A DNA stretch of 64,000 bases from NCBI GenBank assembly GCA_030148645.1, contig JASBTB010000007.1:12571-76570 (forward strand), in the 5' to 3' direction. Both the position numbers and the translations under genes were made by a program. The notes under the pieces were generated by a model that worked only from the letters and a program-made list of their open reading frames with translations, was not told where the DNA came from and ran no database searches. The first letter of the stretch is position 1, and the number at the start of each line of letters is the position of its first letter. This DNA is from Demequina sp. GTDB taxonomy: Bacteria > Actinomycetota > Actinomycetes > Actinomycetales > Demequinaceae. This document shows positions 18,514-37,019 of the stretch, one piece after another.

Positions 18514-18633
18514 TGACCACGCGACAAGTAGTGGTTAGTTGTCTGGATAACGCCGATTCGCCTGACTAGGCGAGGGTAGCGGCAGGCCGAGAAGCGGGTC
18601 CCGGAAGCGGCTGCTGGTGAGGAAGATGGGGAC

Positions 18634-18714
18634 GTGGACTTCGGGGACGGGAAGCAGACCTGGATCGGTGGCGGCGGCGAAGCAAGTCTCGACGATATGC
18701 TCACTGGGTGGTCT
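18634..18714 (+). pseudogene. Degenerate 5' fragment of a paralogue of the 14817 integrase
   Basis: gtggacttcggggacgggaag vs gtggacttcgaggacgggaac (14817); DDMLTGWS shared; about 30 nt deleted between the two matching blocks. Confidence 0.8.
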
Positions 18715-19014
18715 GGGAGCGGTCCGGGTGCACGGTGTCGGTGCGGGGACAGGTGGCTCGCCGCCAGCTGTTCGACAGTGACACGGACGAAGGGGCACCG
18801 CGGCACCGATTGCCGCATATGGTCGAGCCGGTCGTGCGCGGTAAACTGGATGAGGACCTGGCCATCACCAGTTGGCCGAGTCAGCCAGCTCCGAGTCCAG
18901 GCCACAGCTGAGCAGACACCTCGAAGCCGATCCGGGTGTTCTGGCCCATACGGCTAGTTTTGCGGAGATCCTGCCGCGGGGGTTCCTTGTCCTGAGGAAG
19001 AGAGAGCACGAGTC

Positions 19015-19662: not shown

Positions 19663-19775
19663 GTTCCTGGGCTCTCGCGGGCTCAGCCGCATGACCGCGC
19701 CGGCCCGGCGATCGTTACCGGGCGGGCACGCTCAGGAGGCCGGGCCTGCCGCACCGTCAGGCACGAGCGCGTGGG

Positions 19776-21031: not shown

Positions 21032-21056
21032 AGCCTCTGCCTCCACTCCCGCCCGG

Positions 21057-22559
21057 TCAGTGGTTGCCCGAGAAGGCCTGCGACTGAGTCCCCGGCCCGT
21101 GGTGGCGCAGCAACCGTCCGGTGACCGCGGCCCCGACCGCCAGGACCACGGCGAGGATGATCATCGTGACCAAGAACCCGGTGTCGAAGGCACTGCTCGC
21201 CGCCTCGATGATCGCCCGGTCCCCGCCCGCTGTCGCCAGCGCATCCGACAGGCTCTCGTGCGCACCCTCCGGCGCGCCGGCCGGGAGCCGCACGGTGGTG
21301 GTGTAAACGAAGGTGAGCAGGCTGCCCAACAACGCGACAGCGGTCAGGGACCCGAACTCATACGACACCTCCTCGACCGAGGACGCCATCCCGGCACGGC
21401 GGGCGGGCACATTGCCCACAATCGCGGTCGAGGCCACCGACATCGCCCCACCCAGCCCGGCGCCGGTAACCAGCAGCCCGGCAACCAACACACCGAACAC
21501 GTCGGCCTGCACACCGATGATCACCACGACCACCCCGAGCGAGGCGACCGCAAGGCCCCCGGCGATCAACGGCAGCAGGCCGATCCTGTGCAGGAACGCC
21601 CCGCCCAACAGCGCGGTGGGCAGCGACCCGATCGCGACCGCCGCGACCAGCAGCCCGGCCTCCAGGGGGGTGAAACCCTCCACAAGCTGATACCGCTGGG
21701 TCGTGACCAGCTGGGACCCGCCGATCGCGAACATCGAGAACGCCGCCGCCAGCACCCCGGCGCTGAACGCGGGATTGCGGAAGATCGAGAACTCCAGCAG
21801 CGGCTGCTCCAAGCCCCGCTGACGGCGGACGAACAGCACCGACCCGACCACCGCGGCCACCAAGCCCGCACCAACGATCACCCAGTTCTGCGGGGAATGC
21901 GCGAGCTCCTTGATGAAGAACACCGCACCCACCAGCGCGACCATCGCCTGCAACGACGACACCAGGTCCCACCTCTTGGACGGGTCGGGGTCGTTGGGCG
22001 GTGCGATCAGCACCGCCGCGATCAACGCGGCGATCACCACGGGCACGTTGATCAGGAACACCGAGCCCCACCAGAAGTGCTCCAGCAGCACCCCGCCCAC
22101 GATCGGGCCCAGCGCCGCACCCACCACCGCAAGGCTCCCCCACACCGCGATCGCGAAATTGCGCTCACGCTCAACCTCGAACGAGACCCGGATCAGCGCC
22201 AGCGTGGCCGGCATCATCGCCGCCGCGCCCACCGCCAGCACCGCACGCGCCGCGATCAGCAGACCCGCCGACGGCGCGAACGCCGCCCCCAACGACGCCA
22301 CCCCGAACACCACCAGACCGATCAAAAACATCCGCCGGCGCCCGATCCGGTCCCCCAGCGTGCCCGAGCCCAGCAACAGGCCCGCCATCACCACCGGATA
22401 GGCGTTGATGATCCACAAGCTCTGCGACCCCGACGCCCCCAACTCCTCGGTCAACGTCGGCAACGCCGTATACAGGATCGAGTTGTCCAGAGTGATCAAC
22501 AGCAGCCCCGCCGCCACCGTCACCAGCAGACCCCACCGCTGCCGCTTGCTCAAACTCAC
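21057..22559 (-). CDS. 14-TM DHA2-type MFS efflux pump
   Basis: LITLDNSILYTALP, WIINAYPVVMAGLLL..GTLGDRIGRR, WGSVFLINVP. Confidence 0.93.
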   Translation of the reverse strand: MSLSKRQRWGLLVTVAAGLLLITLDNSILYTALPTLTEELGASGSQSLWIINAYPVVMAGLLLGSGTLGDRIGRRRMFLIGLVVFGVASLGAAFAPSAGLLIAARAVLAVGAAAMMPATLALIRVSFEVERERNFAIAVWGSLAVVGAALGPIVGGVLLEHFWWGSVFLINVPVVIAALIAAVLIAPPNDPDPSKRWDLVSSLQAMVALVGAVFFIKELAHSPQNWVIVGAGLVAAVVGSVLFVRRQRGLEQPLLEFSIFRNPAFSAGVLAAAFSMFAIGGSQLVTTQRYQLVEGFTPLEAGLLVAAVAIGSLPTALLGGAFLHRIGLLPLIAGGLAVASLGVVVVIIGVQADVFGVLVAGLLVTGAGLGGAMSVASTAIVGNVPARRAGMASSVEEVSYEFGSLTAVALLGSLLTFVYTTTVRLPAGAPEGAHESLSDALATAGGDRAIIEAASSAFDTGFLVTMIILAVVLAVGAAVTGRLLRHHGPGTQSQAFSGNH

Positions 22560-22584
22560 GTCATCACACCTTTCCGGAACCGAA

Positions 22585-22638
22585 CTATCACCACCCGTAA
22601 CTATACCATACGTACGATACAGTTACGACTGGTGATAG
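22585..22638. promoter_or_regulatory. Long imperfect palindrome, probable TetR operator upstream of the MFS
   Basis: CTATCACCAcccGTAACT...AGTTACgacTGGTGATAG with central ATACGTAC. Confidence 0.7.
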
Positions 22639-22825
22639 GTGGCCGGGCTCCACACCAGCCTTGAACGCACAACCCGGACCCTCAGAAAGACACCGAAGCG
22701 GACAGCGCGCACGTGCAGCAGTCCCAACAGAGCCTCCCGAGAACCGGCACACCACCCGTCGCAACAGCCGCACCAACGCCCCACCCAGCTGACGCCCCCT
22801 GCACCCCGATGCACACCTGAACAGC

Positions 22826-22873
22826 ATGGATTACGAACGCTTCGAATACTTGCTTACGCCGGTTGGGAGCTGA
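22826..22873 (+). CDS. Putative 15-aa leaderless small ORF MDYERFEYLLTPVGS (copy B), preceded by ICE motif copy 6
   Basis: CACCT at 22814-22818, 7 nt, then ATG; its TGA ends 5 nt before the pilin-like ATG at 22879. Confidence 0.5.
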   Translation: MDYERFEYLLTPVGS

Positions 22874-22878
22874 GCGGC

Positions 22879-23145
22879 ATGGACGTGTTCCCCGACTTCG
22901 ACGGCCTCGGCGGGATCGGTGACCTGCGCGAGGTGATCGGCGCGCTGCTCACCTTCGTCCTGGTGATCGCCGTGTTGATGCTGATCGTCTGTGCCCTCAT
23001 CTGGGCACTCGCCGCCGCCAACGGCAACCACGCTGCCGCGACCAAGGCGCGCGTCGGCGCCTGGACCGCGCTCGGTGCCGCGGTCCTGGCCGGCGGCGGG
23101 GTGGCGTGGCTGAACTGGCTCATCGCCCTGGGTCAGCAACTCTGA
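22879..23145 (+). CDS. Pilin-like (DUF6112 / VirB2-like) membrane protein 1
   Basis: MDVFPDFDGLGGIGDLREVIGALLT...; two hydrophobic helices. Confidence 0.75.
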   Translation: MDVFPDFDGLGGIGDLREVIGALLTFVLVIAVLMLIVCALIWALAAANGNHAAATKARVGAWTALGAAVLAGGGVAWLNWLIALGQQL

Positions 23146-23203
23146 CCCCTTGCCCGTCCTCGAACCTTCGCGCCGCGCGGCGCCGGGTTCTTAAGACTGT
23201 GGA

Positions 23204-23226
23204 GCGGGCGGTGCACCTGACCGACG
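23204..23226 (+). promoter_or_regulatory. ICE motif copy 7 (GGGCGGTGCACCTGACCGAC-G)
   Basis: GTGCACCTG at 23211-23219; followed by a hairpin-rich leader and AGGAG before 23282. Confidence 0.5.
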
Positions 23227-23281
23227 AACCCATCCGCGTTCCCCGCCCTCCGGGGCGGGTCCGTTCGTCAGGAGACCCACC

Positions 23282-23602
23282 GTGTTCGATCTCATCACCA
23301 CCGTCCTGGCCGCACCCGCACTGGTGCCGATGGACATCAACATCGACCCCAACGATTCCGGTCTTCCCGGGATCGCCCAGCTGCGCACCATCGTCGGCGC
23401 GGTCATGACCATCGGCCTGATCCTGTCCGTCCTCGCCCTGATCATCTCGGCGATCGTGTGGGGCTTCGGCGCCAACTCCTCCAATCCACATCTGGCCGGC
23501 CGGGGGAAGGTGGGCGTCCTCGTCTCCTGTGGCGCCGCGGTGATCTGCGGCGCGTCGGTGACGTTGATCAACTTCTTCTGGGACGTCGGCCAGCAGGTCT
23601 GA
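23282..23602 (+). CDS. Pilin-like (DUF6112 / VirB2-like) membrane protein 2
   Basis: IDPNDSGLPGIAQLRTIVGAVMTIGLILSVLALIISAIVWGFG...GKVGVLVSCGAAVICG; paralogous to 22879. Confidence 0.8.
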   Translation: MFDLITTVLAAPALVPMDINIDPNDSGLPGIAQLRTIVGAVMTIGLILSVLALIISAIVWGFGANSSNPHLAGRGKVGVLVSCGAAVICGASVTLINFFWDVGQQV

Positions 23603-23633
23603 CCCCACCCTCTCCATCAACTCGATCTGAGGA

Positions 23634-25118
23634 GTGATTGCGGTGGGTGTGTGCGATGTTCCCATCATCTCGACCCTGTGCGACACCGCCGGCGAAGCAG
23701 CGGCCTCGCTGGTGGCGGCGCCGTTCGACTGGCTCGCCCAAGCAATGGGCGCTGCCGCCGGTTGGCTGTTCGAAGCCGTGTGGACGGTGTTCGACACCAC
23801 CACCTTGGTGGATGTCACCCGGCCCGAGTACGTAGCGGTCTACAACATCTTGTTCGGCATCGCGGTGTTCGTGATGCTGATCTTCTTCTGTCTCCAACTC
23901 ATCACCGGTCTGATCCGCCGCGACCCCACCGCCCTGGGTAGGGCTGCGCTCGGTCTGGCGAAGTCCGTGCTCGGCAGCTTCGTCGTCATCACCCTGACGG
24001 CGTTGTTGCTGGAGATCGTGGATCAGTTGTGCGTCGGGATCATCCAGGCCGCCGGGGAGACCACCGAGTCGATGGGCGACAAGATCACCCTGCTGGCCGC
24101 GGGACTGGTCGGCATCAACATCGCCGCGCCCGGGGTGGGCGCGATCATCACGATCTTCCTCGCCGGCCTGGCCATCAGCGCGGCCGCGATCGTGTGGCTC
24201 TCCCTGCTCGTGCGGAAGGCGCTGCTGTTGGTGGCGATCGTGCTCGCACCCCTGGCGTTCTCCGGCGCGTCCTGGGATGCCACGCGGGGGTGGATCGGCA
24301 AGTGGGCGATGTTCGTCATCGCCCTGATCTGTTCCAAGCTGGTCCTGGTCGTGATGTTCCTCGTCGCCGTCACCCAGGTGGCCGCGCCGATCGATGGCGA
24401 TCTGTCCTCGGTCAGCGATCCGATTGCCGGGATCGTGCTGATGGCGATGGCCGCGTTCGCCCCGTATCTGACGTACAAGTTCCTGTCGTTTGTGGGCTTC
24501 GACATGTACCACGCGATCGGGTCCGAGCAGGACGCGAAGAGCGCCCTCAACCGGCCCATCCCGACACCGATGAAACCGGCCGGTGACGGCCCGCAGAAGG
24601 TCCTCGACGGAGGCAACAGCGGCAGCGGCGGGGGCGGCAACAGCGGTGGCGGCGGTGGGAGTGGGAGCGGTGGGAAGACCCCGCCTCAGCCGAAGAGTCC
24701 GACACCCCAGGCCGCGGGGAGCACTGCCGGGGCAGGCGGAGGGAAAGCCGCCGCCGCAGGCGGCGGGTCCGCCGGCGCGAGCGGCACAGCCGGAGCTGGT
24801 GCAGGTGCTGGTGCCGGGGCTGCGGTGGCTGGTCCGGCTGCAGCGGCGGTGGTCGCCGCGAAGGTCGCCAAGGACGCCGCCACCGCCGGCCCCAAGGCCG
24901 GCACCGCCCTCGGCAGCCAGGGCGAGACCGCCGCCGACGCCGCCGGGCAAACCGGCAGCGCCCCACCGCCATCACAGGCGCCCCCGCCATCGAACCTCAC
25001 GCCCAAGCCGTCGTCCACGTCGGCACCCGTGGCACCGTCGACCGGTCCCTCCCAGCCGGAGCCGCGCCCGCCGAAGCTGCCACCACCACCGGCGCCGAAG
25101 CCCACTGGGAAGGAGTGA
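23634..25118 (+). CDS. TrbL/VirB6-like polytopic membrane protein with a Gly/Ala/Pro-rich tail (start may be GTG 23643)
   Basis: Multiple TM segments, LLVRKALLLVAIVLAPLAF, low-complexity C-terminus. Confidence 0.85.
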   Translation: MIAVGVCDVPIISTLCDTAGEAAASLVAAPFDWLAQAMGAAAGWLFEAVWTVFDTTTLVDVTRPEYVAVYNILFGIAVFVMLIFFCLQLITGLIRRDPTALGRAALGLAKSVLGSFVVITLTALLLEIVDQLCVGIIQAAGETTESMGDKITLLAAGLVGINIAAPGVGAIITIFLAGLAISAAAIVWLSLLVRKALLLVAIVLAPLAFSGASWDATRGWIGKWAMFVIALICSKLVLVVMFLVAVTQVAAPIDGDLSSVSDPIAGIVLMAMAAFAPYLTYKFLSFVGFDMYHAIGSEQDAKSALNRPIPTPMKPAGDGPQKVLDGGNSGSGGGGNSGGGGGSGSGGKTPPQPKSPTPQAAGSTAGAGGGKAAAAGGGSAGASGTAGAGAGAGAGAAVAGPAAAAVVAAKVAKDAATAGPKAGTALGSQGETAADAAGQTGSAPPPSQAPPPSNLTPKPSSTSAPVAPSTGPSQPEPRPPKLPPPPAPKPTGKE

Positions 25119-25125
25119 GACGGCC

Positions 25126-26589
25126 ATGACCTCGAAGCAGAACGAGCCCTCGACCGCGCTGGTGCCGGTCAAGTTCTCCCGCTTGACTCGCCGCGGCATC
25201 CTCCTCGGCCTCTCCTTATCCCAACTCATCACCCTCGCCACCGGTGTCCTTTCGGTCGTAGTCGCGCTCTATGCAGGCGGCGGCATCCTGCTGGCCTACA
25301 CCGCGCCCGCCTGGGTACTCTCCGCCGCCCTGACGTGGGTACCGGTCGCCGGGCGCCCGGCAGTCGAGTGGCTGCCGGTCACGTTCTGGTGGGTATGGCG
25401 TTCCACCGGCGGCCAGCTCCTGTACCGGCGCAGGATCGTTGTCCCGCGGCCGGCCGGCACGCTCGCGTTGCCCGGCGATATGGCGCGCTTGCGGGAGTAC
25501 ACCGACCCCCAGACCGGGGCCGGGATGATCCACGACCCCACCGCCGCCACCCTCACCGTCGTCTGTGAGGTGACCCATCCCGCGTTCGTACTGCTCGATC
25601 CCGGCGAGCAGGAACGCCGCGTCACCTCGTGGGGCCGCGTGCTGGCCACGGTCTGCCGCTCCGGGCGGATCGCCACCCTCCAGGTGCTGGAACGCACCCT
25701 GCCGGACTCGGGCACCGGACTGGCCGAATGGTGGGCCAGCCACGGCACCCACGATGACACGTGGGCCGCGATCACCTACGCCGAACTCATCGACCGAGCC
25801 GGTCCCGCCGGGGAACGCCACGCCACCACCCTGTCCCTGAGCCTGGACATGAAGACCAGCGCGCGGCAGATCAGGACCGCCGGCGGCGGCATCCGCGGCG
25901 CCGCCGCCGTGCTGCGACAGGAGATGTCCACCCTCACCTCGGCGCTGCGCTCAGCCGACCTGACCCCATCAGGCTGGCTGACCCCCGGACAGATCGCCGT
26001 CATCCTCCGCGGCACGTACGACCCAGCGGTCGCCGCGACCCTGGAACGCCACGGCGAACTCGGCCAGCACCTCGCCACCGCCGGGCCGGTGGCCGTCAAC
26101 GAGTCCTGGACACGCCTGCGCACAGACTCCGCCTACCACGCCGTTCTGTGGATCAGCGAGTGGCCCCGCTCCATGGTCTACCCCGGCTTCCTGTCCCCGG
26201 TGCTGCTCTCCACCGGCATCCAGCGCTCATTTTCGCTGCTGTGCACGCCGATGCGCTCGGACCAGGCGGCCCGGGACATCCGCAAGAAGAAGGTCGAACA
26301 CATCAGTGACGCCGCCCAACGCGCCAAGATCGGGCAGATCGAAGACGCCGCCCACACCGCCGAATACCACGACGTCCTCCAGCAGGAAGCCGACCTGACC
26401 GCCGGCCACGGCGTGCTGCGCTACACCGGCCTCATCAGCGTCTCCGCACCCACCGTCGACGAACTCGACGCCGCCGTGGCCGCGATCGAACAAGCCGCCA
26501 TCCAAGCCTCCTGCGAGACCCGGCTGCTGGTCGGCCAGCAGGCCGCGGCGTTCACCGCCGCCGCGTTGCCGCTGTGCCGCCACATCTGA
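25126..26589 (+). CDS. PrgI / SCO6880-like conjugation protein
   Basis: VKFSRLTRRGILLGLS...two TMs...LWISEWPR; AAGGAG upstream; lies between VirB6 and VirB4. Confidence 0.8.
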   Translation: MTSKQNEPSTALVPVKFSRLTRRGILLGLSLSQLITLATGVLSVVVALYAGGGILLAYTAPAWVLSAALTWVPVAGRPAVEWLPVTFWWVWRSTGGQLLYRRRIVVPRPAGTLALPGDMARLREYTDPQTGAGMIHDPTAATLTVVCEVTHPAFVLLDPGEQERRVTSWGRVLATVCRSGRIATLQVLERTLPDSGTGLAEWWASHGTHDDTWAAITYAELIDRAGPAGERHATTLSLSLDMKTSARQIRTAGGGIRGAAAVLRQEMSTLTSALRSADLTPSGWLTPGQIAVILRGTYDPAVAATLERHGELGQHLATAGPVAVNESWTRLRTDSAYHAVLWISEWPRSMVYPGFLSPVLLSTGIQRSFSLLCTPMRSDQAARDIRKKKVEHISDAAQRAKIGQIEDAAHTAEYHDVLQQEADLTAGHGVLRYTGLISVSAPTVDELDAAVAAIEQAAIQASCETRLLVGQQAAAFTAAALPLCRHI

Positions 26590-26618
26590 CCCAGCCCACG
26601 GCGGGGCTCACGGTGGGG

Positions 26619-26640
26619 GCGTGCGTGCACCTGACAGGCG
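26619..26640 (+). promoter_or_regulatory. ICE motif copy 8 (GCGTGCACCTGACAGGC-G)
   Basis: GTGCACCTG at 26625-26633; followed by hairpin AACCCCGG-gtg-CCGGGGTT and AGGAG. Confidence 0.5.
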
Positions 26641-26686
26641 AACCCCGGGTGCCGGGGTTGTCCGTTCTCGCCCACAGGAGACGCTC

Positions 26687-27547
26687 ATGCCCACGTTCCA
26701 TGACCCGCTCAAAGATGCCGCTGAAGCATCCGAAGCGCTGCGCGGCCTCGCGCACGCCAGCCGGGTCTTCGACGATCCCGCCGACACGTACGTGGTGTTC
26801 GGTGACCTCGTGGCCGGCGTCCGGTCGCTGCGGCAGGTTCTCGACCAGCTCGCCAACACGCATCTGAGCCACCGCGACCGTGCCCACAATGACGACGGCG
26901 ATCACCTCGCAGGATCGGACAGCGTGTTCGCTGCCGCCGACGAGCTGCACCACGCCGGCACCCTGCTCGACCAGGCCCAGGACCGCCTCGATGCCGCGTT
27001 CTCCCATTCGGGGCGGATCGCCTGGCACCCCGAGCCCGCTATCTCAACTGAGGTCCTCGCCGAGGACGCAGAGCGTCGGTGGGTCTCCGTGGTGTTCCTC
27101 CAGGGCGAGGAGGCCGAGGAGGTGCTGGCCCTGATTGACCGCGAGGGCACCGACACCGCGATCACCCACCTCGCTCAGTGGGACTTCGGGGAGGAGACCA
27201 CCGACGCCGCCATGGAGAACGGCTACGTCTACGACGCACCCCCGACCGGCGCCCTCGACCGGGTCGCGACCGAGGGCGCCTACGCCCTGACCTACAACCC
27301 GGCCATGGGGCACGTCAGCCTGCTGCGCCAGCACACCGTCCCACCCGATCTAGCCTTGGATGACGCCGAGGTGGTGCCCGTCCGTGAAGCCATCGCCGGC
27401 GTCGGTCCCCTCGACACGAGCACACCTGCCGCCACGCCCGTCACGACGCGGGAGGGGCCGCTGCGGACATCTCCCGCGACGAAGGAGGACTGGTTCGTCG
27501 GACCCGCCCGCACCGCTGGATCGACAGGACTGGGGCTGTCCCGATGA
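26687..27547 (+). CDS. Hypothetical protein between PrgI and VirB4
   Basis: AGGAG before ATG 26687; ATGA overlap with VirB4. Confidence 0.7.
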   Translation: MPTFHDPLKDAAEASEALRGLAHASRVFDDPADTYVVFGDLVAGVRSLRQVLDQLANTHLSHRDRAHNDDGDHLAGSDSVFAAADELHHAGTLLDQAQDRLDAAFSHSGRIAWHPEPAISTEVLAEDAERRWVSVVFLQGEEAEEVLALIDREGTDTAITHLAQWDFGEETTDAAMENGYVYDAPPTGALDRVATEGAYALTYNPAMGHVSLLRQHTVPPDLALDDAEVVPVREAIAGVGPLDTSTPAATPVTTREGPLRTSPATKEDWFVGPARTAGSTGLGLSR

Positions 27548-29031
27548 GCGCGCGCGAGACCGAGCGGCTGCACACCTCGGTGCTGGTCGCTCCGGCGAAG
27601 GAGCGACGCCGGATGCGCAAGCAGCGCCTGGAGGCGGCCGCCCGCCTCCAGGCCGAACAGCGCCGCACCGAGCAGGCAGCAGCGAAGGCCAAAGCCGACG
27701 CCGAGCGCGCCGAACGCCGTGCGACGCAATATCTGCCTGCGGCGGGTGAACCCGGACCGGCAGCGCTGCGCACACCGGGCAGATTCCACCTCCCTCGCCA
27801 CCAGGACACGTCCGCGACTCTTGCCGGGGCGTATCCGTTCGTCGCCGAGGGCGGTCTGGGCGCCGACGGGGTCTTCGTCGGCCAAGACCTCTACTCCGGC
27901 GGCTCCTTCGTCTACGACCCCTGGGTGCTCTACGCCCGTGGGGTCATCACCGCCCCCAACCTCGTCCTGGCCGGGATCGTCGGCTCCGGCAAATCCTCCC
28001 TGGCGAAGTCGCTCTACACGCGGTCGTTGCCCTTCGGGCGGCGCGTGTATGTGCCCGGTGATCCCAAGGGCGAGCACACCGCGGTCGCGAACGCGGTCGG
28101 CGGCCGGGCGATCGTCCTGGGACACGGCCTGAACACACGGTTGAACCCGCTCGACGAGGGTCACCGGCCCAGCGGGTTCACCGATGAAGAGTGGGCCACC
28201 ACGGTCGCCTCCCGCCGCCGCGACCTCATCGGCGCCCTGGCCGAAACCGTCCTCGCCCGCGGACTGACGCCTCTGGAGCACACCGCGATCGACCTGGCCC
28301 TGACCGAGACGGTACGGGAGAACGCGGTGCCGATCCTGCCGATGGTCGTCGACCGCATCCTCACCCCCAACGAAGCAGCCGATGGACGGCTGGCCGAGGA
28401 CGGCCGGCTCGTCGGCCACGCCCTGCGCCGCCTTGTGGCCGGTGACCTCGCCGGCCTGTTCGACGGTCCCTCCACGGTGACGTTCGACCCGAGCCTGCCG
28501 ATGATCTCCCTCGACCTGTCCCGCGTGACGGAGAATTCCACGCTCATCTCGGTGTTGATGACGTGCTCGTCGGCGTGGATGGAATCCGCGCTGCTGGACC
28601 CGGCCGGTGGTCAACGCTGGGTGATCTACGACGAAGCCTGGCGGCTGATGTCCCACCCGGCCCTGCTGCGCCGGATGGATGCGCACTGGCGGTTGGCGCG
28701 GCATTACGGGATCGCGAACATGCTGATCTTCCACAAGCTCTCTGACCTGGACAACGTCGGTGACGCCGGCTCCGCGATGCGATCCCTGGCCAGCAGCCTG
28801 CTGGCGAACGCGGAGACGCGGATCGTCTACCGGCAAGAATCCGACCAACTCGGCCCCACCGCCCAAGCCCTCGGACTCACCGGCACCGAACAGAAACTCC
28901 TCCCATCGTTGGGCGTCGGGCAGGGACTGTGGCGGATCAAGGACCGGGCCTTCGTCACCCAGCACCAACTCCATCCCGCCGAACTGGCACTGTTCGACAC
29001 CAGCTCCCGGCTCACCTCGGGGGTGAAGTGA
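27544..29031 (+). CDS. VirB4-like conjugative ATPase
   Basis: Walker A GIVGSGKSS, Walker B VIYDEAW, RHYGIANMLIFH. Confidence 0.92.
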   Translation: MSARETERLHTSVLVAPAKERRRMRKQRLEAAARLQAEQRRTEQAAAKAKADAERAERRATQYLPAAGEPGPAALRTPGRFHLPRHQDTSATLAGAYPFVAEGGLGADGVFVGQDLYSGGSFVYDPWVLYARGVITAPNLVLAGIVGSGKSSLAKSLYTRSLPFGRRVYVPGDPKGEHTAVANAVGGRAIVLGHGLNTRLNPLDEGHRPSGFTDEEWATTVASRRRDLIGALAETVLARGLTPLEHTAIDLALTETVRENAVPILPMVVDRILTPNEAADGRLAEDGRLVGHALRRLVAGDLAGLFDGPSTVTFDPSLPMISLDLSRVTENSTLISVLMTCSSAWMESALLDPAGGQRWVIYDEAWRLMSHPALLRRMDAHWRLARHYGIANMLIFHKLSDLDNVGDAGSAMRSLASSLLANAETRIVYRQESDQLGPTAQALGLTGTEQKLLPSLGVGQGLWRIKDRAFVTQHQLHPAELALFDTSSRLTSGVK

Positions 29032-29591
29032 TGAACCGCAAACCCCCACGCCACGCTACCGGGCCGGAACCGGAGGACACGCCGGTCGTGCTGCCGCACG
29101 CGGTCATCATCGTCACCGAGACCGGCGCCCTGGACGTCACCCTCGACGGCACCGACTTTCCACCACCAGAAGGTGACGCGTGGACGCGGAGCACCTTCGG
29201 AGCCCTGCTGGATGCGCTCACCCGGGACCGAACCAGCACGGTGCGCATCGAGGTGCACGAGAGCGACGGGAGCGTGTTCACCGACATCATCCGCGCCCGC
29301 CGTCGCGCGCCCGAACCACCAGAAACCGAGGCCGAGACCGAAGGGGGCACGCGGTTCACGAGCAGCAGCAAGCGGCGGCCGGAACCGGTCGAAGTGACCG
29401 GCGAGGGGTTCGTGCCCGGCGAAGACGTCGCCGTCGCGGTCATCATCGCCCACACCGATGCCACCAGCACCGGTCATGCGCGCGCCCTCCTGGACCGGGG
29501 TCAACTCCGGTCGCTGCCATCCGATGTTGCCAGCGAGGTCGTGCTGTTCGGCCGCATCTCCGCCACCCTCCATGTTCGGCGGCTGCCGTGA
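29031..29591 (+). CDS. ICE hypothetical protein
   Basis: TGATG and GTGA coupling on both sides within the transfer operon. Confidence 0.65.
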   Translation: MNRKPPRHATGPEPEDTPVVLPHAVIIVTETGALDVTLDGTDFPPPEGDAWTRSTFGALLDALTRDRTSTVRIEVHESDGSVFTDIIRARRRAPEPPETEAETEGGTRFTSSSKRRPEPVEVTGEGFVPGEDVAVAVIIAHTDATSTGHARALLDRGQLRSLPSDVASEVVLFGRISATLHVRRLP

Positions 29592-31375
29592 ACACGCCGC
29601 AGCAGCGGCAAACCGGCTCCTTCGGCGACGAGCTGACCAACGCCGCCCTCATCGGGCTCGTCAGCATGTTCGGGGTCGCACTCATCCTCCGCGCATCCGG
29701 CTCCGTCGCAGCGTTCCTCACCGGCCCACCCCAACCCGACGCTGGCCCCGCCGCCGGCCTCGGGGTGCTGTTCAACCCCGGCGACCCAGCCGCCGCGCTT
29801 GATGCCGACGGACTGAACCCCGTCGCCTACTGGGGCACCACCGCGGTGATGCTCGCTGGGCTCGTAGCCGCCGGGGCATGGGTGTGGGTTCTGCTGCGCC
29901 GCCACTCCCGCAAGGTCGAGACCGACCCGCGCCGCCTCGCTGGCACCGCTACGACCCATGAGATAGCCGAGACAGCCTCGGCGAAGGCACTGCTGCGCCG
30001 GGCCGGGACACTCCGGCCCTCCCTGGACAACCCAGACCCCTCGCATGTTGGCTATCTGATCGGCGCCTCCAAGGGTCGTGAGGTGTGGGCATCGGTGGAG
30101 GACTCGATCCTGCTCATCGGCCCACCCCGCTCGGGCAAGGGCCTGCACATCGTGATCCCGGCGATCCTCGACGCACCCGGCGCCGTCGTCACCACCTCGA
30201 CCCGGCCGGACAACCTCACCGCCACCCTCCGCGCCCGCCAACGCGACGGCCGTCCGGTGGCGGTGTTCGACCCCCAGCACCTCGCCGAAGGCATCCCCGC
30301 CGGACTCCGCTGGTCTCCGATCCGCGGCTGTGAAGACCCGCTGACGGCCATGATCCGCGCCACCGGCCTCGCCGCCGCCACCGGACTTTCCGCTGGCGGG
30401 GTCGAATCCGGCGGGTTTTGGGAAGGCAAGACCCGCACCGCGCTCCAAGCCCTTCTGCACGCCGCAGCTCTCGACCACCGACCACCGGCTGAACTGTTCC
30501 GGTGGACCCTCGACCCCTCCGCCGCGGCCGAGGCCGTCGCGATCCTCACCAACTCACCCAGCGCGGCGATGGGATGGGCGGACTCACTCGGGGCGATGAT
30601 CGATTCGGACCCCAAGACCCGCGACTCGATCTGGCAAGGCGTCGCACTCGCCCTCGGAGCCTTGGCCGACCCCCGCGTTCTCGACGCCGTCTCACCGGGA
30701 CCGGGTGAGGGCTTCGACCCCGAACACTTCATCCGAGAAAGAGGCACCCTCTACCTGTTGGCGACCGGCGCCGGTGCCGGGGCATCCGCCGCCCTGGTCG
30801 CCGCGTTCGTCGAAGACCTCATCGAGACCGCGCGCCGCATCGCCGCCCGCTCACCCGGTGCACGCCTCGACCCGCCCCTGCTGCTCGCGCTGGATGAGAT
30901 CGGCAACCTCGCCCCCTTGCCGTCGCTGCCGACGCTGATGGCCGAAGGCGGCGGCACCGGCATCACCACCCTGCCCGTGCTCCAGTCCCTGGCGCAGGCG
31001 AGGGACAAGTGGAACGAGAACGCCGCCGGCGCGATCTGGGATGCCTCCATCGTGAAGATCATCCTCGGCGGCGCCTCCAACTCCCGCGACCTTCAAGACC
31101 TGAGCACCCTGATCGGGGAACGCGACGAATACACCGACAGCGTGACTCTTGGCGACCACGGCACTCGCTCCAACCAACGCTCCATCCGCCGCGTCCCGAT
31201 CCTCCCACCCGACCGCATCCGCACCTTGCCGTTCGGCACCGGCGTCACTCTCTTGCGCGCCGCACCACCCATCGTCACCGACCTGCGCGCCTGGCCGTCA
31301 CGCCGCGACGCCGGAGGGTTGCAGGTCGACCGGACCGAGATCGAGGCGCTGCTGCGCCGCCCAACCGAGTCCTGA
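29588..31375 (+). CDS. VirD4/TraG type IV coupling protein
   Basis: N-terminal TMs, GPPRSGKG, LALDEIGN, VLQSLAQ. Confidence 0.93.
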   Translation: MNTPQQRQTGSFGDELTNAALIGLVSMFGVALILRASGSVAAFLTGPPQPDAGPAAGLGVLFNPGDPAAALDADGLNPVAYWGTTAVMLAGLVAAGAWVWVLLRRHSRKVETDPRRLAGTATTHEIAETASAKALLRRAGTLRPSLDNPDPSHVGYLIGASKGREVWASVEDSILLIGPPRSGKGLHIVIPAILDAPGAVVTTSTRPDNLTATLRARQRDGRPVAVFDPQHLAEGIPAGLRWSPIRGCEDPLTAMIRATGLAAATGLSAGGVESGGFWEGKTRTALQALLHAAALDHRPPAELFRWTLDPSAAAEAVAILTNSPSAAMGWADSLGAMIDSDPKTRDSIWQGVALALGALADPRVLDAVSPGPGEGFDPEHFIRERGTLYLLATGAGAGASAALVAAFVEDLIETARRIAARSPGARLDPPLLLALDEIGNLAPLPSLPTLMAEGGGTGITTLPVLQSLAQARDKWNENAAGAIWDASIVKIILGGASNSRDLQDLSTLIGERDEYTDSVTLGDHGTRSNQRSIRRVPILPPDRIRTLPFGTGVTLLRAAPPIVTDLRAWPSRRDAGGLQVDRTEIEALLRRPTES

Positions 31376-31395
31376 TATGCCCCGCGTCCGTGGGT

Positions 31396-31417
31396 GCGGG
31401 CGTGCACCTGCCTGACA
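31396..31417 (+). promoter_or_regulatory. ICE motif copy 9 (GGGCGTGCACCTGCCTGAC-A) upstream of ssb
   Basis: GTGCACCTG at 31402-31410. Confidence 0.5.
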
Positions 31418-31467
31418 CAGCGGCCCCGATCAGGTGGTCGCCACCGAGAAGTCAGGAAGGCACTGTC

Positions 31468-31914
31468 ATGGCTATTCAGACGCAGGAGTCGTTGTCGGGG
31501 TTCATCGCATCGGACCCGCAGGTACGCGAGACGTCGAAGGGCGATGCCCGGTTCTACGCACGGATCGGCAAGGAACACTTCCGCCGCGAGGACGACGGCT
31601 CGTTCACCCAGACCGAGACGACCTATCACCACATGGTGATGTTCGGCCGGTCGGCCGAACTCGCGGACGCCCGGTTCGCCAAGGGCGACAATTTCATCGC
31701 CGAGGGCTACACGCGCCCCGTCAGCTACGAACGCGATGGCCAGAACGTCGAGGGTGAAGAGTTCGTCGCCAAGAAGATCGGCCACGACCTCGCCCGCACC
31801 CGCTACGACGTGGATCGCACACCGCGCCGGGCGGCGGTGGAGCGGACAGCGGCCGCGTTTGAGGCGCCGGGCCGGCCGGTACCGGCCGCGCAGTCCTCAG
31901 CGCTGAGTCTGTGA
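31468..31914 (+). CDS. ssb: Single-stranded DNA-binding protein (ICE type)
   Basis: SLSGFIASDPQVRETSKGDARFYARIG...MFGRSAE..DARFAKGDNFIAEG (OB fold). Confidence 0.85.
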   Translation: MAIQTQESLSGFIASDPQVRETSKGDARFYARIGKEHFRREDDGSFTQTETTYHHMVMFGRSAELADARFAKGDNFIAEGYTRPVSYERDGQNVEGEEFVAKKIGHDLARTRYDVDRTPRRAAVERTAAAFEAPGRPVPAAQSSALSL

Positions 31915-31930
31915 ACCGGGAGCGGCGACG

Positions 31931-32548
31931 ATGACTGACGACCCCCGCGAACCCGACCCGGGCATCGACACCGACGAGCCGGACCTGGACGAACCCGACG
32001 TGGACGAGCCGGATGTCTTCAACAGTCCGCCGCGGATCAGCGCTGCGGACGTGTCGGAGCCACCGCACCCGGTGAACTGGAACCTGCTGACCGCGCACGA
32101 GCTGGAACAAGAATGGCTGGCGTTGAACCGGTGGGTGGACTGGCTGCGGCATACCTACGGGCTGCCCGCCAGCGTGATCCCGCCGTTCTGGCACCACCAC
32201 CCCGAGCTGGTCTGGGAGCTGTCAGCTCTGCATCTGCATTGGCTGTGCGCCTACGACGCAGAGCAGAACGGGTCCGCCCCAAGCGGGTGGCACCGCGACT
32301 TCGCCGAGACCCGCAACCGGCTCCGCGACTGGGTCGCCGCCTCCGGCACTCGTCTGGATCGGGACCGGTCCACCCGGCAGACCGTCTGGCCCGGCGAGGA
32401 CCCCGCACCGCCGGTGGAGGACATCGTCATCGCCGACCGCGACATGGAGTTCGTGGAATGGGTCCAAGCCGATGTGCGGCGCCGCCAGCAGGCCGAGGAC
32501 GAGTTCTACGCCCACATTGACGCCGTCACCGGGGAGGTGTGGGACTGA
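31931..32548 (+). CDS. DUF4913-like hypothetical protein
   Basis: WVDWLRHTY...PPFWHHHPELVWELSALHLHW motif. Confidence 0.65.
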   Translation: MTDDPREPDPGIDTDEPDLDEPDVDEPDVFNSPPRISAADVSEPPHPVNWNLLTAHELEQEWLALNRWVDWLRHTYGLPASVIPPFWHHHPELVWELSALHLHWLCAYDAEQNGSAPSGWHRDFAETRNRLRDWVAASGTRLDRDRSTRQTVWPGEDPAPPVEDIVIADRDMEFVEWVQADVRRRQQAEDEFYAHIDAVTGEVWD

Positions 32549-32808
32549 TGGGCACGTACGTGAAGAAGACGAACCGCCGCCGCTATGAGGACCGGTCGTT
32601 CTCGATCCGCGCGGTGCATCGTGACCGGCCCGACCTGCACAAGCTCGCCGAGGTACTCATCCGGCTGACCTTGCAGGAGACCGGCCGCACCCGTGCCGAA
32701 CATCGGGCCGCTGAACCACCCGACACCTACCGGCCGGCGACTGCTGGCACGCCTGGCGCCTCGATGTCTACGGCTATCGACCAGCGCCGGACCGGGAGGG
32801 TAGAATGA
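32548..32808 (+). CDS. Small basic protein upstream of the recombinase
   Basis: TGATG coupling; SIRAVHRDRPDLHKLAEVLIRL. Confidence 0.65.
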   Translation: MGTYVKKTNRRRYEDRSFSIRAVHRDRPDLHKLAEVLIRLTLQETGRTRAEHRAAEPPDTYRPATAGTPGASMSTAIDQRRTGRVE

Positions 32809-32997
32809 ACGAAGCAAGCCTCGCGCACCGCGTGGGGTGTTGTGGTCCTAAACCCCGCCGACTGGCGGGCAACACGCAACGTGGGCCCCTCTGGGTCTAG
32901 TCCTACAGCCTTCGGGCTGCTCTCACGATCAACACCCTCTCCGGGCCTTTGTAGGCCCGCGGGCGCGAGGGTCGATCCGCGTGAGAGAAGGATCCCG

Positions 32998-35712
32998 ATG
33001 ACCACCGCGTCCACCAACACCGACCCTGTGCTTGACGATCCGGTACAGAGCCTCATCGACCCGCCCGAGGGCGCCGCCGTAGCAGTGTCGTATCTGCGCG
33101 TGTCCACCAAGGAGCAGGCGCAGAAGGGCGGCCGGGACGAGGGCTTCTCCATCCCCGCGCAGCGTGAAGCCAACCGGCGCAAGGCCGAACAACTCGGCGC
33201 CGCGGTCGTGGAGGAGTTCATCGACGCCGGCGAGTCCGCGCGCAAGGCCGATCGGCCCGAGCTGATGCGGATGATCCGCTACGTCAAACAGCACAAGGTC
33301 GCCTACTGCATCGTGCACAAGGTCGACCGGCTCGCCCGCAATCGAGCCGATGACGTGACCATCCACCTCGCTCTCCAGCAAGCCGGAGTCCTGCTCGTCT
33401 CCGCGACCGAGAACATTGACGAGACGCCCTCGGGGATGCTGCTACACGGCATCATGTCCACCATCGCCGAGTTCTACTCCCGCAACCTTGCCACCGAGGT
33501 CACCAAAGGCATGACCCAGAAGGCCGCGGTCGGTGGAACCCTCGGCAAGGCGCCCATCGGCTACCTCAACGTCCGTACCCGCGACGAGATGGGCCGCGAG
33601 CTCCGCACCATCGAGCTCGACCCCGAGCGCGCGCCCATGATCGAGTGGGCCTTCAAGGCATACGCCTCCGGGAACTGGAGCGTCAGCCAGCTCCACGACG
33701 AACTCACCTCACGCGGACTCCGCAGCCTGCCAACCCCGAAGCGAGCGGCGAAGGCTCTCGCCGTCTCGACCGTGCACCGGCTCCTCACCAACCCCTACTA
33801 CAAAGGCGATGTCGTCTACCGCGGCACCCGCTACAAGGGGAACCACCCCGCGCTCGTGCCCGCCGAGGTCTGGTACCAGGTCCAGTCCGTGCTCACCGCG
33901 CACCAGTGCGCCGTCGAGGCGACCCAGGTTCACGGTCACTACCTCAAAGGCACCATCCACTGCGGCCAATGCGGGTCGCGGCTCATCGTCTCCAACGCGA
34001 AGAACCGCCACGGCAACGTGTACTGCTACTTCGTCTGCTCCGGCCGGCATTCCAAGCGGACCGAGTGCACGCGCCAGGCCATGCTCATCGAGGACGTGGA
34101 GAAGCTCGTCGAGGACTACTACTCCCGCGTCCAGATCACACCCGCCCAGCAAGACGCCCTCGCCGGGATGCTCCACCACGAGTTCGACCGGCTGATGGCC
34201 GCCGAAACCGAAGAACTCGCGCGTCTCACGGCCAACCGCGACCGGCTCGAAAGCGAGCAAGACCGACTCATGCAGGCCCACTATGCCGACGCGATCCCGC
34301 TGACCGTGCTCAAGCGCGAGCAGGACCGCATCCTCGCCGAACTCGACAAGGTGACCCGACGTATCGACGCCCACTTCGGCGACTACGCCGACGCCCGCGC
34401 CCACCTCGACGACGCCCTCGGGCTCCTCGCCAACTGCGCTGACATCTACAACCGGTGCGACGACGCCAACCGTCGCCTGTGCAACCAGGCGTTCTTCACC
34501 AAGGTCTACATCGACGAAGACGACGAGCTGCGCGTCGAGAACAACCGACCCTTCGAGATGCTCCTCGACCCCGAGATCAACGCCAACGCCCTCACCTGGG
34601 CCGAGAACGCAGACAAGGCCCGAACCACCACCAACGATTCTGTTGGCAAGGGTTCGAGCCTTGTGCGTCGGGTGGAGCTGAGGGGAATCGAACCCCTGAC
34701 CTTCTCATTGCGAACGAGACGCGCTACCAACTGCGCCACAGCCCCATCGCCCCTCGCGGAGCGACGAACAGAGTATCACTTCGACCCCGCCGCCCGGGAA
34801 CGCATCGGCGGGATCGGCGTCGGCGACCCCCAGGCCGCCGACGCCGACCGACCGCTAGCTGGCCGCCAGAATGTCGACCACGAACACGAGTGTCGCGCCG
34901 CCGGGGATCGTGTCACCGGATCCCGCGTCGCCGTAGCCGAGGTCCGGCGGAACGACCAGCAACACCTGGCTGCCGACCTTCTTGCCGACGAGTCCCTGGA
35001 CCCAGCCGTCAATGAGGCGGCCGGACGTCAAGATGAACGTATCGGGCGCGCCGCGATCCCACGAGGAATCGAACTTGTCGCCGTTGAAGATCCAGCCGGT
35101 GTACTGCACGGTCACGCTCTGGCCGTCCTCGACCACGGGGCCGTCTCCGGTAATGAGGTCCTGGGCCACGAGGCCAGAGGGCAACTCGGTGCTGGGGTAC
35201 GCCACCGACGGGGCGCCGTTGGCAGCAAGGGTGACGGTGGGGAGCCCGTCAACCGGAGCAACTGCGACGCCCTCGGCCCGCTCCAAAACGTCGCCCACGC
35301 CGGTCACGGTCACCACCATGATGCTGCCGCCGGTGCCATCACCGGGCGCGGCGTAGAGGAAGTCGGCTCCCACGCGGGCGCCGTTGAGCACATCGGCGAT
35401 GGCGGGGTCGATCTTGCTTGTGAGGAACTGAACCTTCTCAGTGGTGTCGGTGTCGTACGTCGAGTACTGCGTGGAGCCATCCGCACCCGACACGACAATG
35501 TACTGGAGCGAGAGCATCTTGCCCTCAGAAATCTGCTCCCCGCTTCCGTCGGTGACCAGACGCGCACCAGTCGTGGTGAACTCGACGGGCGTGGTCGCCT
35601 CCAGTTCGGGCGCGACTCCGTCGCCGTTGTCGATCCACTTCATCTGCGCGAGGGCGTCGGTGGGGTCGACGGCAGCGACGGGACTTGGTTGCGCGGTGGC
35701 GGAATCGGGTGA
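32998..35712 (+). CDS. Large serine recombinase; the recognisable protein ends near 34670 but the frame stays open through tRNA-Ala to 35712
   Basis: SYLRVST catalytic Ser, VHKVDRLARN, recombinase domain, CGQCG zinc ribbon and coiled coil; AGAAGG before ATG 32998. Confidence 0.93.
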   Translation: MTTASTNTDPVLDDPVQSLIDPPEGAAVAVSYLRVSTKEQAQKGGRDEGFSIPAQREANRRKAEQLGAAVVEEFIDAGESARKADRPELMRMIRYVKQHKVAYCIVHKVDRLARNRADDVTIHLALQQAGVLLVSATENIDETPSGMLLHGIMSTIAEFYSRNLATEVTKGMTQKAAVGGTLGKAPIGYLNVRTRDEMGRELRTIELDPERAPMIEWAFKAYASGNWSVSQLHDELTSRGLRSLPTPKRAAKALAVSTVHRLLTNPYYKGDVVYRGTRYKGNHPALVPAEVWYQVQSVLTAHQCAVEATQVHGHYLKGTIHCGQCGSRLIVSNAKNRHGNVYCYFVCSGRHSKRTECTRQAMLIEDVEKLVEDYYSRVQITPAQQDALAGMLHHEFDRLMAAETEELARLTANRDRLESEQDRLMQAHYADAIPLTVLKREQDRILAELDKVTRRIDAHFGDYADARAHLDDALGLLANCADIYNRCDDANRRLCNQAFFTKVYIDEDDELRVENNRPFEMLLDPEINANALTWAENADKARTTTNDSVGKGSSLVRRVELRGIEPLTFSLRTRRATNCATAPSPLAERRTEYHFDPAARERIGGIGVGDPQAADADRPLAGRQNVDHEHECRAAGDRVTGSRVAVAEVRRNDQQHLAADLLADESLDPAVNEAAGRQDERIGRAAIPRGIELVAVEDPAGVLHGHALAVLDHGAVSGNEVLGHEARGQLGAGVRHRRGAVGSKGDGGEPVNRSNCDALGPLQNVAHAGHGHHHDAAAGAITGRGVEEVGSHAGAVEHIGDGGVDLACEELNLLSGVGVVRRVLRGAIRTRHDNVLEREHLALRNLLPASVGDQTRTSRGELDGRGRLQFGRDSVAVVDPLHLREGVGGVDGSDGTWLRGGGIG
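34673..34745 (-). tRNA. tRNA-Ala(CGC); probable ICE integration site
   Basis: Reverse complement GGGGCTGTGGCGCAGTTGGTAGCGCGTCTCGTTCGCAATGAGAAGGTCAGGGGTTCGATTCCCCTCAGCTCCA; 73 nt, G3-U70 pair. Confidence 0.97.
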
Positions 35713-35811
35713 CGCGCCAGGCGACACCGTGCTGGCTTGACTCGGTGCGCAGGCCGCGAGCGCGAGGGTAGCTGCGGCAAGGGCGGCAGAAAGGACGAAC
35801 TTGTGCTTCAC
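34855..35811 (-). CDS. FKBP-type peptidyl-prolyl isomerase, lipoprotein
   Basis: Lipobox LAAC after MKHKFVL; VQYTGW...KFDSSWDRG...LIDGWVQGL...PPDLGYG. Confidence 0.92.
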   Translation of the reverse strand: MKHKFVLSAALAAATLALAACAPSQASTVSPGASPDSATAQPSPVAAVDPTDALAQMKWIDNGDGVAPELEATTPVEFTTTGARLVTDGSGEQISEGKMLSLQYIVVSGADGSTQYSTYDTDTTEKVQFLTSKIDPAIADVLNGARVGADFLYAAPGDGTGGSIMVVTVTGVGDVLERAEGVAVAPVDGLPTVTLAANGAPSVAYPSTELPSGLVAQDLITGDGPVVEDGQSVTVQYTGWIFNGDKFDSSWDRGAPDTFILTSGRLIDGWVQGLVGKKVGSQVLLVVPPDLGYGDAGSGDTIPGGATLVFVVDILAAS

Positions 35812-35999
35812 GTGCAATACTCCCAGTGATTCGGTGACGCACCAGTGTCCCACGGTGGAGCACATGGTCCGCGCCCACCGCCGACGAGCGGCGTCGGTAC
35901 TTCTCAACCAACGTCGGAAACGGCGCAGCGTTCCCGATCTGAGGAAATTCAGAGGATTCTTGTGCGGGCTGTTCGGGGACGGGGCCGATGACGGAGGAC

Positions 36000-37019
36000 T
36001 TAGGCGCTGGCTTGCCGACGCTTGGTAAGGATCGCGTCGAGCGCCCCTGTACGCGGGAGGTCGTGCGCGGCCTGCTCCGCCAGAGCCGCGGATGGTGTGG
36101 TTCCGTGGGAGGCATGCGAGGACGCCGCGTAGTCGTCCTGTGACAACGGTCGCGCCGTCTGTTGGCGCACCGACGCCTTGAGTGCGTAGGCGGGTACCGG
36201 CATCGTCTTGGGTCGCCACGGGCTGCCAGCGGGCCCCTGTCGGCCACCCTGCACGGCCGACGCGGTGGCTGCGGGAGCCTCGTGAGTGGCCCGCGCGCGT
36301 CGCGGCTTGGAGATCGCGGGCGCCGTGAGCGGCGCCAAGTCCGTCGCCGTGACGATGCGAATGGCCTGTGTCGCCACGTCGCTTGGCTGGACGTCGTGTC
36401 CATGCGCACGGGCGGCAGACACCACCTTGAGGGCACGCAACGCGGTTGCCGCCGCTCGCACCTCGTGATCGACGGCGCGAATCTGGGCGAGCGCTGCCCG
36501 TTCGGCAGCTCCCGCACGCACCGATGCGCCCACCGCGGTCACCATGGCACCCGTCGCGACGGCCGCGATCCAGGAAGGCGCGGTGGTGGTGGCCGAGAGC
36601 ACCCAGGCGACCACGGTCGCCACCGTCGCGACTCCTGACAGGAACGCGCGTCTGCGCGCACGAGCCGCACGCTGAGACATCGATCCCAGCCGGTCCCGCC
36701 GCAGGTGGAGACTCTCGCGTTGCGCGCGTGTGGCCGCGCGGTCGAGCGGGCCGTTCGGGCGCGACATGTGGGTCTGTCCCACCGAAGACACCCGGGCGCG
36801 AGCGGCACCCGTGACCAGCAGGGGGACCTCGGCCGACGCGCTTGCGGCATCGGCGGGGCTCACCCGTGCCGCCGTGGCTCGCACCACGCGCATGTCGGCG
36901 CTGTAACGATCCTCGGTGCGCACCAGCGCATAGTCGCTACGTTCACGGATACGCTGCGGCAGGACATAGGCAAGCACCAGTCCTACGGCGATGATTGCGA
37001 GAAGTCCTGCAGGAGGCAT
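36000..37019 (-). CDS. SepX/GlpR-like membrane protein
   Basis: N-terminal TM, RRRRAF followed by two TMs, PWRPKTMPVPAY motif; lies between rimJ and tRNA-Ala as in other actinobacteria. Confidence 0.65.
   Translation of the reverse strand: MPPAGLLAIIAVGLVLAYVLPQRIRERSDYALVRTEDRYSADMRVVRATAARVSPADAASASAEVPLLVTGAARARVSSVGQTHMSRPNGPLDRAATRAQRESLHLRRDRLGSMSQRAARARRRAFLSGVATVATVVAWVLSATTTAPSWIAAVATGAMVTAVGASVRAGAAERAALAQIRAVDHEVRAAATALRALKVVSAARAHGHDVQPSDVATQAIRIVTATDLAPLTAPAISKPRRARATHEAPAATASAVQGGRQGPAGSPWRPKTMPVPAYALKASVRQQTARPLSQDDYAASSHASHGTTPSAALAEQAAHDLPRTGALDAILTKRRQASA

Follow-up and report, generated by a model that had tools for sequence, protein, structure and literature searches.

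We analysed a 64,000-nucleotide stretch of the Demequina sp. contig JASBTB010000007.1 (the window; positions left of it are given as coordinates of the same contig, C152), in which the gene for a large serine integrase runs without a stop codon into a tRNA-Ala gene. The locus is best explained as the right end (attR) of an actinobacterial integrative and conjugative element (ICE) of the type IV secretion system (T4SS) type, which would have integrated at the extreme 3' end of tRNA-Ala(CGC). Below, we describe the reading frame that crosses this junction, the attachment (att) sites at the two ends of the element, and the protein that the excised element is predicted to encode.

An integrase frame that enters a tRNA gene

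A single open reading frame (ORF) on the plus strand extends from ATG 32998 (or GTG 32842) to a stop at 35710-35712 and comprises 904 amino acids when counted from the ATG, according to the ORF list and its translation. Only about the first 558 of these 904 codons belong to the recombinase. The Resolvase, Recombinase, and Zn_ribbon_recom domains predicted by Pfam all lie within residues 29-375 (PF00239, E-value 8e-31, residues 29-180; PF07508, 5e-14; PF13408, 2e-9), the N-terminal domain is of the resolvase type and carries the catalytic motif YLRVSTKEQ, and motif and domains are intact. Matches to PDB sequences include the catalytic domain of TP901-1 integrase. The recombinase and zinc-ribbon domains are accompanied by an inserted coiled coil, which appears as two long helices (373-467) in the AlphaFold2 model of a related protein, P0128. 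Codon 558 (CGG) ends at 34671 and codon 559 is the GTG at 34672-34674; the residues from codon 559 onward (VELRGIEPLTFSLRTRRATNCATAP), i.e. ELRGIEPLTFSLRTRRATNCATAP after the GTG, are the antisense translation of tRNA-Ala(CGC). Beyond the tRNA, the frame continues antisense to an ORF containing an FKBP_C domain. A previous sequence-only reading of this DNA had described a frame lacking a stop before the att site and passing antisense through both genes, and ORF calling, translation, ARAGORN and Pfam all bear this out. The features of the junction are the following:

1..34674, plus strand: portion of the putative ICE that falls inside the window, the left end (attL) being located at C152:~4804
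32998..34671, plus strand: large serine integrase proper, codons 1-558 (Pfam; homologues of 80-92% identity in many actinobacterial genera)
34645..34671, plus strand: P arm of attR, encoding the last integrase residues GKGSSLVRR and containing GGGTTCGAG, a motif resembling a tRNA T-loop; putative integrase-binding half-site
34671..34676, no strand: crossover core GGTGGA, common to attL and attR (from attL/attR pairs, junctions with other tRNAs, and the empty site of relative G005)
34670..34746, minus strand: tRNA-Ala(CGC), the integration target (B' arm), predicted by ARAGORN and intact except that the encoded 3' CCA reads CCC
34675..35712, plus strand: tail that the integrated form gains by read-through, 346 codons when the crossover GTG at 34672-34674 is included, antisense to the tRNA and the FKBP gene (from translation)
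34855..36219, minus strand: host gene for an FKBP-type peptidyl-prolyl isomerase (longest possible ORF; Pfam FKBP_C, 1.4e-26), located in the chromosomal flank outside the element

The 346-codon tail shows no homology to the tail of any other integrase, and tails differ in each host. Among 65 related loci they are scattered between 9 and 477 codons (median 33), with at least 200 codons in 10 of the 65, which led us to reject a meaning in the length of the tail. Such lengths are expected for frames running antisense to genes in DNA of 66-70% G+C, and the FKBP gene is syntenic with tRNA-Ala in the relatives G005 and G017. The long stretch of frame that crosses the FKBP gene is an accidental shadow ORF, and the integrated copy of the integrase appears to end in a meaningless, host-derived extension.

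The absence of a stop codon is a property of the family, and the arrangement recurs in dozens of actinobacterial genera. Homologues recovered by protein search at 80-92% identity (561-849 amino acids) are colinear up to ...GKGSSLVRxV and diverge immediately afterwards, most of them continuing with GLEPLT-, GFEPAT- or GIEPTT-type residues that correspond to an antisense T-arm; each of these close homologues lacks a stop before the same point. Of 80 genomic loci retrieved, 65 could be anchored; the genera represented include Propioniciclava, Microbacterium, Brevibacterium, Dietzia, Pseudonocardia, Arthrobacter, Nostocoides, and Schaalia. In 56 of the anchored loci, a tRNA in antisense orientation begins 17-19 nt beyond the SSLV codon (Ala-CGC, 19; Ala-GGC, 14; Ala-TGC, 10; Lys-UUU, 6; Val, 6; Leu, 1), and a nearly invariant P arm (TCGAGCCTTGTGCGTsgGG) directly precedes the junction at about 65 loci. 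Integrases of 34-60% identity display the same ...V|tRNA-antisense arrangement.

This conservation bears on an explanation by artefact or decay, in which faulty sequencing or assembly erased the stop, or the element is dead and its integrase gene a pseudogene. The assembly is indeed fragmented (152 contigs), but the same stop-less junction is found in about 65 independent genomes, complete chromosomes included, and decay is hard to reconcile with the intact catalytic motif and three domains, or with 80-92% identity among integrases of many genera, which implies recent mobility. We consider error or decay extremely improbable. A hidden stop before 34672, one of two ways in which the sequence-only reading could have been wrong, was accordingly rejected, given that the stop-less feature occurs in all homologues; the other, a crossover downstream of a shared stop, does not apply, as no stop precedes the crossover.

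Two further observations concern individual loci of the set. At L054 and L065, DNA with repeated GACATCGTTGACA motifs breaks the tRNA-Ala beside the integrase at 12-13 nt from the tRNA 3' end, probably a different mobile element that uses a crossover deeper inside the same tRNA. At L063 (Aeromicrobium sp. PE09-221), the contig ends 20 nt past the crossover, inside P' arm sequence (GGTGGACCTCCGTAGAGACTTT), a break that would be compatible with a mixture of the two states of the element, excised and integrated, or with copies in tandem, in that isolate.

Ends of the element and position of the crossover

The left end was located by tblastn with those homologue tails that are not tRNA antisense. 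These matched C152:4789-5244, on the same contig and 7.8 kb left of window position 1, that is, outside the window, and give the element a span of C152:~4804-47243, or about 42.4 kb. attR (window ~34645-34700) and attL (C152:~4771-4835) have GGTGGA alone in common. Given that 11 attL/attR pairs, each taken from a single genome, likewise share only GTGG(A), we place the crossover at tRNA positions 71-74; across the different tRNA targets the common stretch is only GTGG, corresponding to positions 74-71. Codon 559 of the integrase frame (GTG) lies inside this core. The proposal that attP is located inside the 3' end of the integrase gene is therefore upheld, since the two ends share only GGTGGA and no stop comes before it.

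The sequence-only reading had also anticipated a duplicated tRNA 3' end at the far end of the ICE. This part did not hold: no second copy of the tRNA 3' end was found in the window or in the whole genome, and the far end, which lies outside the window, has only 4-6 bp in common with attR. The att sites are short, share few bases, and are not flanked by long direct repeats, as is typical of serine integrases; a duplicated tRNA end is absent because these enzymes leave no long repeats.

Comparison with an unoccupied site in the relative G005 supports the position of the junction. G005 reads TGGTGGAGC, with the CCA encoded, and the window GGGTGGAGC at the same place. In G005 the tRNA is followed by a hairpin (...TTTCCA-TGG-T-GGAGCTGAGG), whereas the window has ...GCGTC-GGG-T-GGAGCTGAGG; as the two differ before the shared GGAGCTGAGG, homology to G005 ends at the tRNA 3' end. 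Whether the encoded CCA is kept or lost varies by host, and the tRNA would stay functional through CCA addition.

At attL, a perfect hairpin with a 19-bp stem is followed by GT, TGGTGGA, and then CCTCCGTAGAGAGTTTGAGAAC. The hairpin (L014, C152 4755-4806, minus strand) adjoins the crossover and is very stable (-37.8 kcal/mol, z -9.1). It is most likely the original terminator of tRNA-Ala, displaced by about 42 kb upon integration; the new tRNA trailer contains no strong hairpin.

The arrangement of the P arm offers a possible basis for target choice. GGGTTCGAG is located about 24 nt from the crossover, and the T-loop motif of the tRNA is mirrored about 23 nt away on the other side. The integrase probably recognises the acceptor and T-arm of the tRNA, which would explain how Ala, Lys, Val, Leu, and His tRNAs can all be targeted.

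The plus-strand genes of the ICE include those for an ArdC/M78 protein, a Prim-Pol, a ParB-like protein, an M23 peptidase, a TraG/VirD4 coupling protein, and SSB, a set typical of T4SS-type ICEs; neither VirB4 nor a relaxase was identified in the Pfam scans that were run, and a tblastn search of plasmids found no close copy, and hence no plasmid-borne attP. A gene for a P-type (E1-E2) ATPase and one for an AraC-family regulator (window 3755-6686) lie inside the ICE and look like cargo, and a DprA-like gene (DNA_processg_A; L014:5866-6855) is found near its left end. Left of the element, 17 nt at C152 4693-4709 (TGGTGGAGCTAAGGAGA), about 95 bp from attL, form a degenerate copy of the 3' end of tRNA-Ala, and the segment C152:1-1064 matches the left-end genes of the ICE itself (C152:5305-6368) at 90% identity. 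Together, the degenerate copy and the related segment indicate that the tRNA-Ala locus is a hot spot that has been hit repeatedly and that an older ICE-like remnant adjoins the present element.

Coding capacity of the excised form

The sequence-only reading had suggested that attP be reconstructed and translated, and we did so by joining the P arm of the window to the P' arm (C152:4807 onward). The GTG-GAC (V-D) frame at attL is the same frame as that of the integrase GTG at attR, and the joined ends read ...GKGSSLVRR-V-DLRREFENPCPHLKTL...SLGMAQTLL... without a stop until C152:5293-5295. The excised form is hence not terminated shortly past the crossover but continues, in frame, through the gene that follows. 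The reconstructed protein has 558 + 163 = about 721 amino acids, the addition consisting of a 50-codon linker, whose first residues (DLRREFENP) are encoded by the P' arm, and two helix-turn-helix (HTH) motifs. Matches of the HTH part to Pfam are weak (Sigma70_r4, 1.3e-4; HTH_28; HTH_23), and C152:4953-5292 has a near-identical DNA-level match in G031. The attP junction is predicted to read ...CGTsGG-GTG-GACCTCCGTAGAG. The reconstructed sequence thus places attP inside the integrase ORF, with an excised form that would stay stop-free to the end of the HTH module. The idea that integrated and excised forms encode different C-termini also stands: 346 antisense codons in one, the 163 residues of linker and double HTH in the reconstructed other.

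Several lines of evidence indicate that the linker is coding sequence in the frame of the integrase. In 14 further elements, no stop interrupts the frame on the attL side between the crossover GTG and the end of the HTH part, with a linker of 50 codons in all; frame 0 of the linker, that of the integrase, has no stop in any of 14 elements, compared with 0-5 (mostly 1-5) in the other frames. The median pairwise dN/dS of the linker is 0.41 in frame 0 versus 0.79 and 1.58 in the other frames, and G+C at the third codon position (0.74) exceeds that at the first (0.60) and second (0.58). Pooled over codons 10-37, all of them upstream of the candidate internal starts, dN/dS amounts to 0.45 in frame 0 versus 0.90 and 1.10; the pairs compared are related sequences, so all these figures are descriptive and not probabilities. 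By these measures, the linker evolves as coding sequence in the integrase frame only. Codons 2-9, the P' arm, are almost invariant at all codon positions, which fits a DNA-level constraint from a putative integrase-binding site.

Junctions that place an integrase in frame with the linker and HTH also occur in nature. They are present at L016 (a complete Microbacterium chromosome), L084, L087, L055, L134, and L149 and in the proteins P0008 and P0014, and a search limited to longer proteins added P0125, P0127, P0128 (Brooklawnia propionicigenes), P0130, and P0131, of 683-728 amino acids. The latter five join integrases of different clades, at V|DLRREF, to a left-end module that is 93-94% identical to that of this ICE. 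In the AlphaFold2 model of P0128, the integrase core is confident to about residue 525, confidence is low between 525 and 596, with the crossover at residue 546, and two three-helix HTH units are again confident (601-685). The linker-HTH part modelled alone gave the same pattern of a low-confidence linker and a confident HTH. A Foldseek search of the PDB with this model returned no match at E <= 0.001; the best matches were weak (E 0.004-0.07), with a CRISPR-repeat-binding protein (2lvs) at the top rank, and include the bipartite DNA-binding domains of Tc3, Mos1, SETMAR, and PAX6. Given that the segment around the crossover is of low confidence, the att site would lie in DNA encoding a flexible tether, and cutting there should spare both folded parts.

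Our best explanation as a whole, that attP resides in the integrase ORF and that the circle encodes an integrase-linker-HTH fusion as the integrating enzyme, is in our judgement likely, and a number of observations weigh against it. A large sister clade of integrases (63-68% identity; P0057-P0120, L147, L148) has its frame one base off the GGGTGG core, giving proteins of 559 amino acids that end in ...LG*, or of 578-594 amino acids that run as ...LG|WLTGLEPA into antisense tRNA-His. Lacking a fusion-capable frame, this clade indicates that the HTH is not needed in cis by all relatives; together with the L140 clade, which stops 117 nt before its tRNA, it shows that the fusion is not universal. 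For most of the chromosomal fusions, the preferred reading is tandem accretion, an incoming element having recombined with the attR of a resident one; they demonstrate the compatibility of the frames and do not by themselves prove the existence of a circle. The linker is predicted to be disordered and has low pLDDT, and its conserved D-x-R-G could partly reflect a ribosome-binding site for an internal GTG or ATG start. Finally, the ICE-like remnant left of attL means that the original left chromosomal flank is no longer there to compare; the left flank of G005 is absent from this genome, and no empty site with identical flanks is available.

Some of these points would also fit an account of incidental overlap, according to which the functional end of the integrase lies near residue 525-558, the integrase and HTH genes are no more than neighbours in the circle, separate translation of the HTH protein begins at an internal start, and their common frame is an inherited accident without function. 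The sister clade, which ends at the crossover or 19 codons past it, the separate stop of L140, and the low pLDDT of the linker all agree with this account, as do the evident tolerance of junk tails of 9-477 codons and the presence, in several elements, of an ATG or GTG at linker codon 44 or 51 preceded by AGGGG. However, the attP form is stop-free, so ribosomes translating the integrase on the circle would make the fusion in any case, and the coding constraint on linker codons 10-37 lies upstream of the candidate starts and is confined to the integrase frame. In addition, L124 and L127 have no start codon at either position, and the strong terminator hairpin directly upstream of the attL crossover makes it doubtful that host read-through would translate the linker here. 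On balance we regard an incidental overlap as unlikely and retain the fusion as the preferred interpretation.

Consequences of the exchange and relation to known systems

Integration severs the long reconstructed ORF: the integrase core remains at attR and gains codons from the antisense strand of the host tRNA onward (346 here), and the linker-HTH part comes to sit about 42 kb away at attL. The excised circle, the form that would enter a new host, could encode only the integrase-linker-HTH protein of ~721 amino acids, which would hence have to be the integrating enzyme. The junk tail acquired upon integration is probably tolerated because it hangs on a disordered C-terminal segment, and the tRNA, deprived of its terminator, may be transcribed antisense into the integrase gene.

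It is tempting to ask whether the exchange of C-termini also serves as a regulatory switch, with an integrase that is scarce or inactive when integrated and a fusion that is stable and active in the circle, or with an HTH protein that acts in trans, after the split, as recombination directionality factor (RDF). One or more routes could lead to such a switch, namely instability of the junk tail, antisense RNA reaching the integrase 3' end from the terminator-less tRNA, and tmRNA tagging of truncated transcripts. The displacement of the native terminator to attL, leaving a trailer with no strong hairpin, is in line with this idea, and precedents exist in the attP-in-repressor switch of phage BPs (PMC4557955) and in engineered integrase-RDF fusions with altered directionality (PMC5737554). 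On the other hand, no sequence is common to the tails, which leaves room only for a generic effect, and the sister clade manages without a fusion. A regulatory function of this kind seems rather improbable to us at present, and that the swap controls directionality or integrase level is speculative. Equally tentative, and more doubtful than not, is the specific model that recombination toggles enzyme architecture, such that the circle, with a tethered bipartite HTH, would be set for integration, and the integrated core, with its HTH encoded about 42 kb away and supplied in trans or not at all, for excision or silence.

That several tRNA species, in many genera, are entered at one defined point (positions 71-74) is not usual among serine integrases, and the family is of interest as a broad-host-range integration system. 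There is also a lesson for annotation, as hundreds of database 'recombinase family proteins' of 560-850 amino acids carry meaningless host-derived C-termini.

Among phages, the integration-dependent immunity of mycobacteriophage BPs and its relatives, reportedly described by Broussard and colleagues in 2013, is one of the closest known systems. In these phages attP lies inside an ORF and integration alters the C-terminus of the encoded protein (Villanueva et al., 2015; PMC4557955). Both features recur here, as does the 3' end of a tRNA gene as target. The BPs ORF, however, encodes a repressor, recombination is carried out by a tyrosine integrase, and what the swap takes away is a degradation tag; in the present element the ORF is that of the serine integrase itself, and what is removed is not a short tag but a linker and a predicted DNA-binding domain. 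Archaeal integrases of the SSV1 type are tyrosine recombinases encoded by an int gene that is split when the element integrates into a tRNA gene. They likewise have attP within the integrase gene, so that each end of the integrated element carries one part of it, and tRNA targets. The SSV1 split, however, separates parts of the catalytic protein, whereas here the enzyme is a serine recombinase whose catalytic core remains whole and from which only a C-terminal accessory module is detached; the element is thus not a partitioned-integrase system of the SSV1 type. Tn916 provides a case of gene expression that depends on circularisation. State-dependent int promoters have been described for ICEKp1 (PMC13023037). 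In these elements, as in ours, excision joins the ends and alters expression across the junction, but promoters and transcripts are rewired there, and the coding sequence of the integrase here.

Serine recombinases at tRNA genes have been noted before, in passages that call them rare, for actinomycete ICEs (AICEs) of Mycobacterium at tRNA-Leu and for the phage phiRSM at tRNA-Ser (Ghinet et al., 2011; PMC3218068), and a passage on the ssrA islands of Dehalococcoides places a serine recombinase at the 3' end of a tRNA-type gene (PMC3146451). As far as these passages go, they share with our family the integration of a serine recombinase element at the 3' end of a tRNA-type gene, and describe no att site inside the recombinase ORF and no fused HTH; the family studied here differs in using several tRNA species and in its apparent membership of the T4SS-type ICEs. 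Within the library searched, no text turned up that describes a serine integrase whose own ORF contains attP or whose HTH can be detached.

What makes a serine integrase integrate or excise is under active study, and the enzymes are widely used for genome engineering. In this context, a parallel to the predicted attP form is synthetic: in engineered integrase-RDF fusions, a small accessory protein is covalently attached to the C-terminus of the integrase (Olorunniji et al., 2017; PMC5737554). The partner in those constructs is a known RDF, whereas the fusion predicted here would be natural and reversible by recombination, with an HTH module as partner. With its att site in the integrase ORF and a predicted DNA-binding module that is removed on integration, the family lends itself to direct tests of whether fusing and splitting a gene can control directionality or activity, in parallel to the engineered fusions, and, should the architecture toggle prove true, it would represent natural fusion/fission control of directionality in a large serine integrase family across the Actinomycetota.

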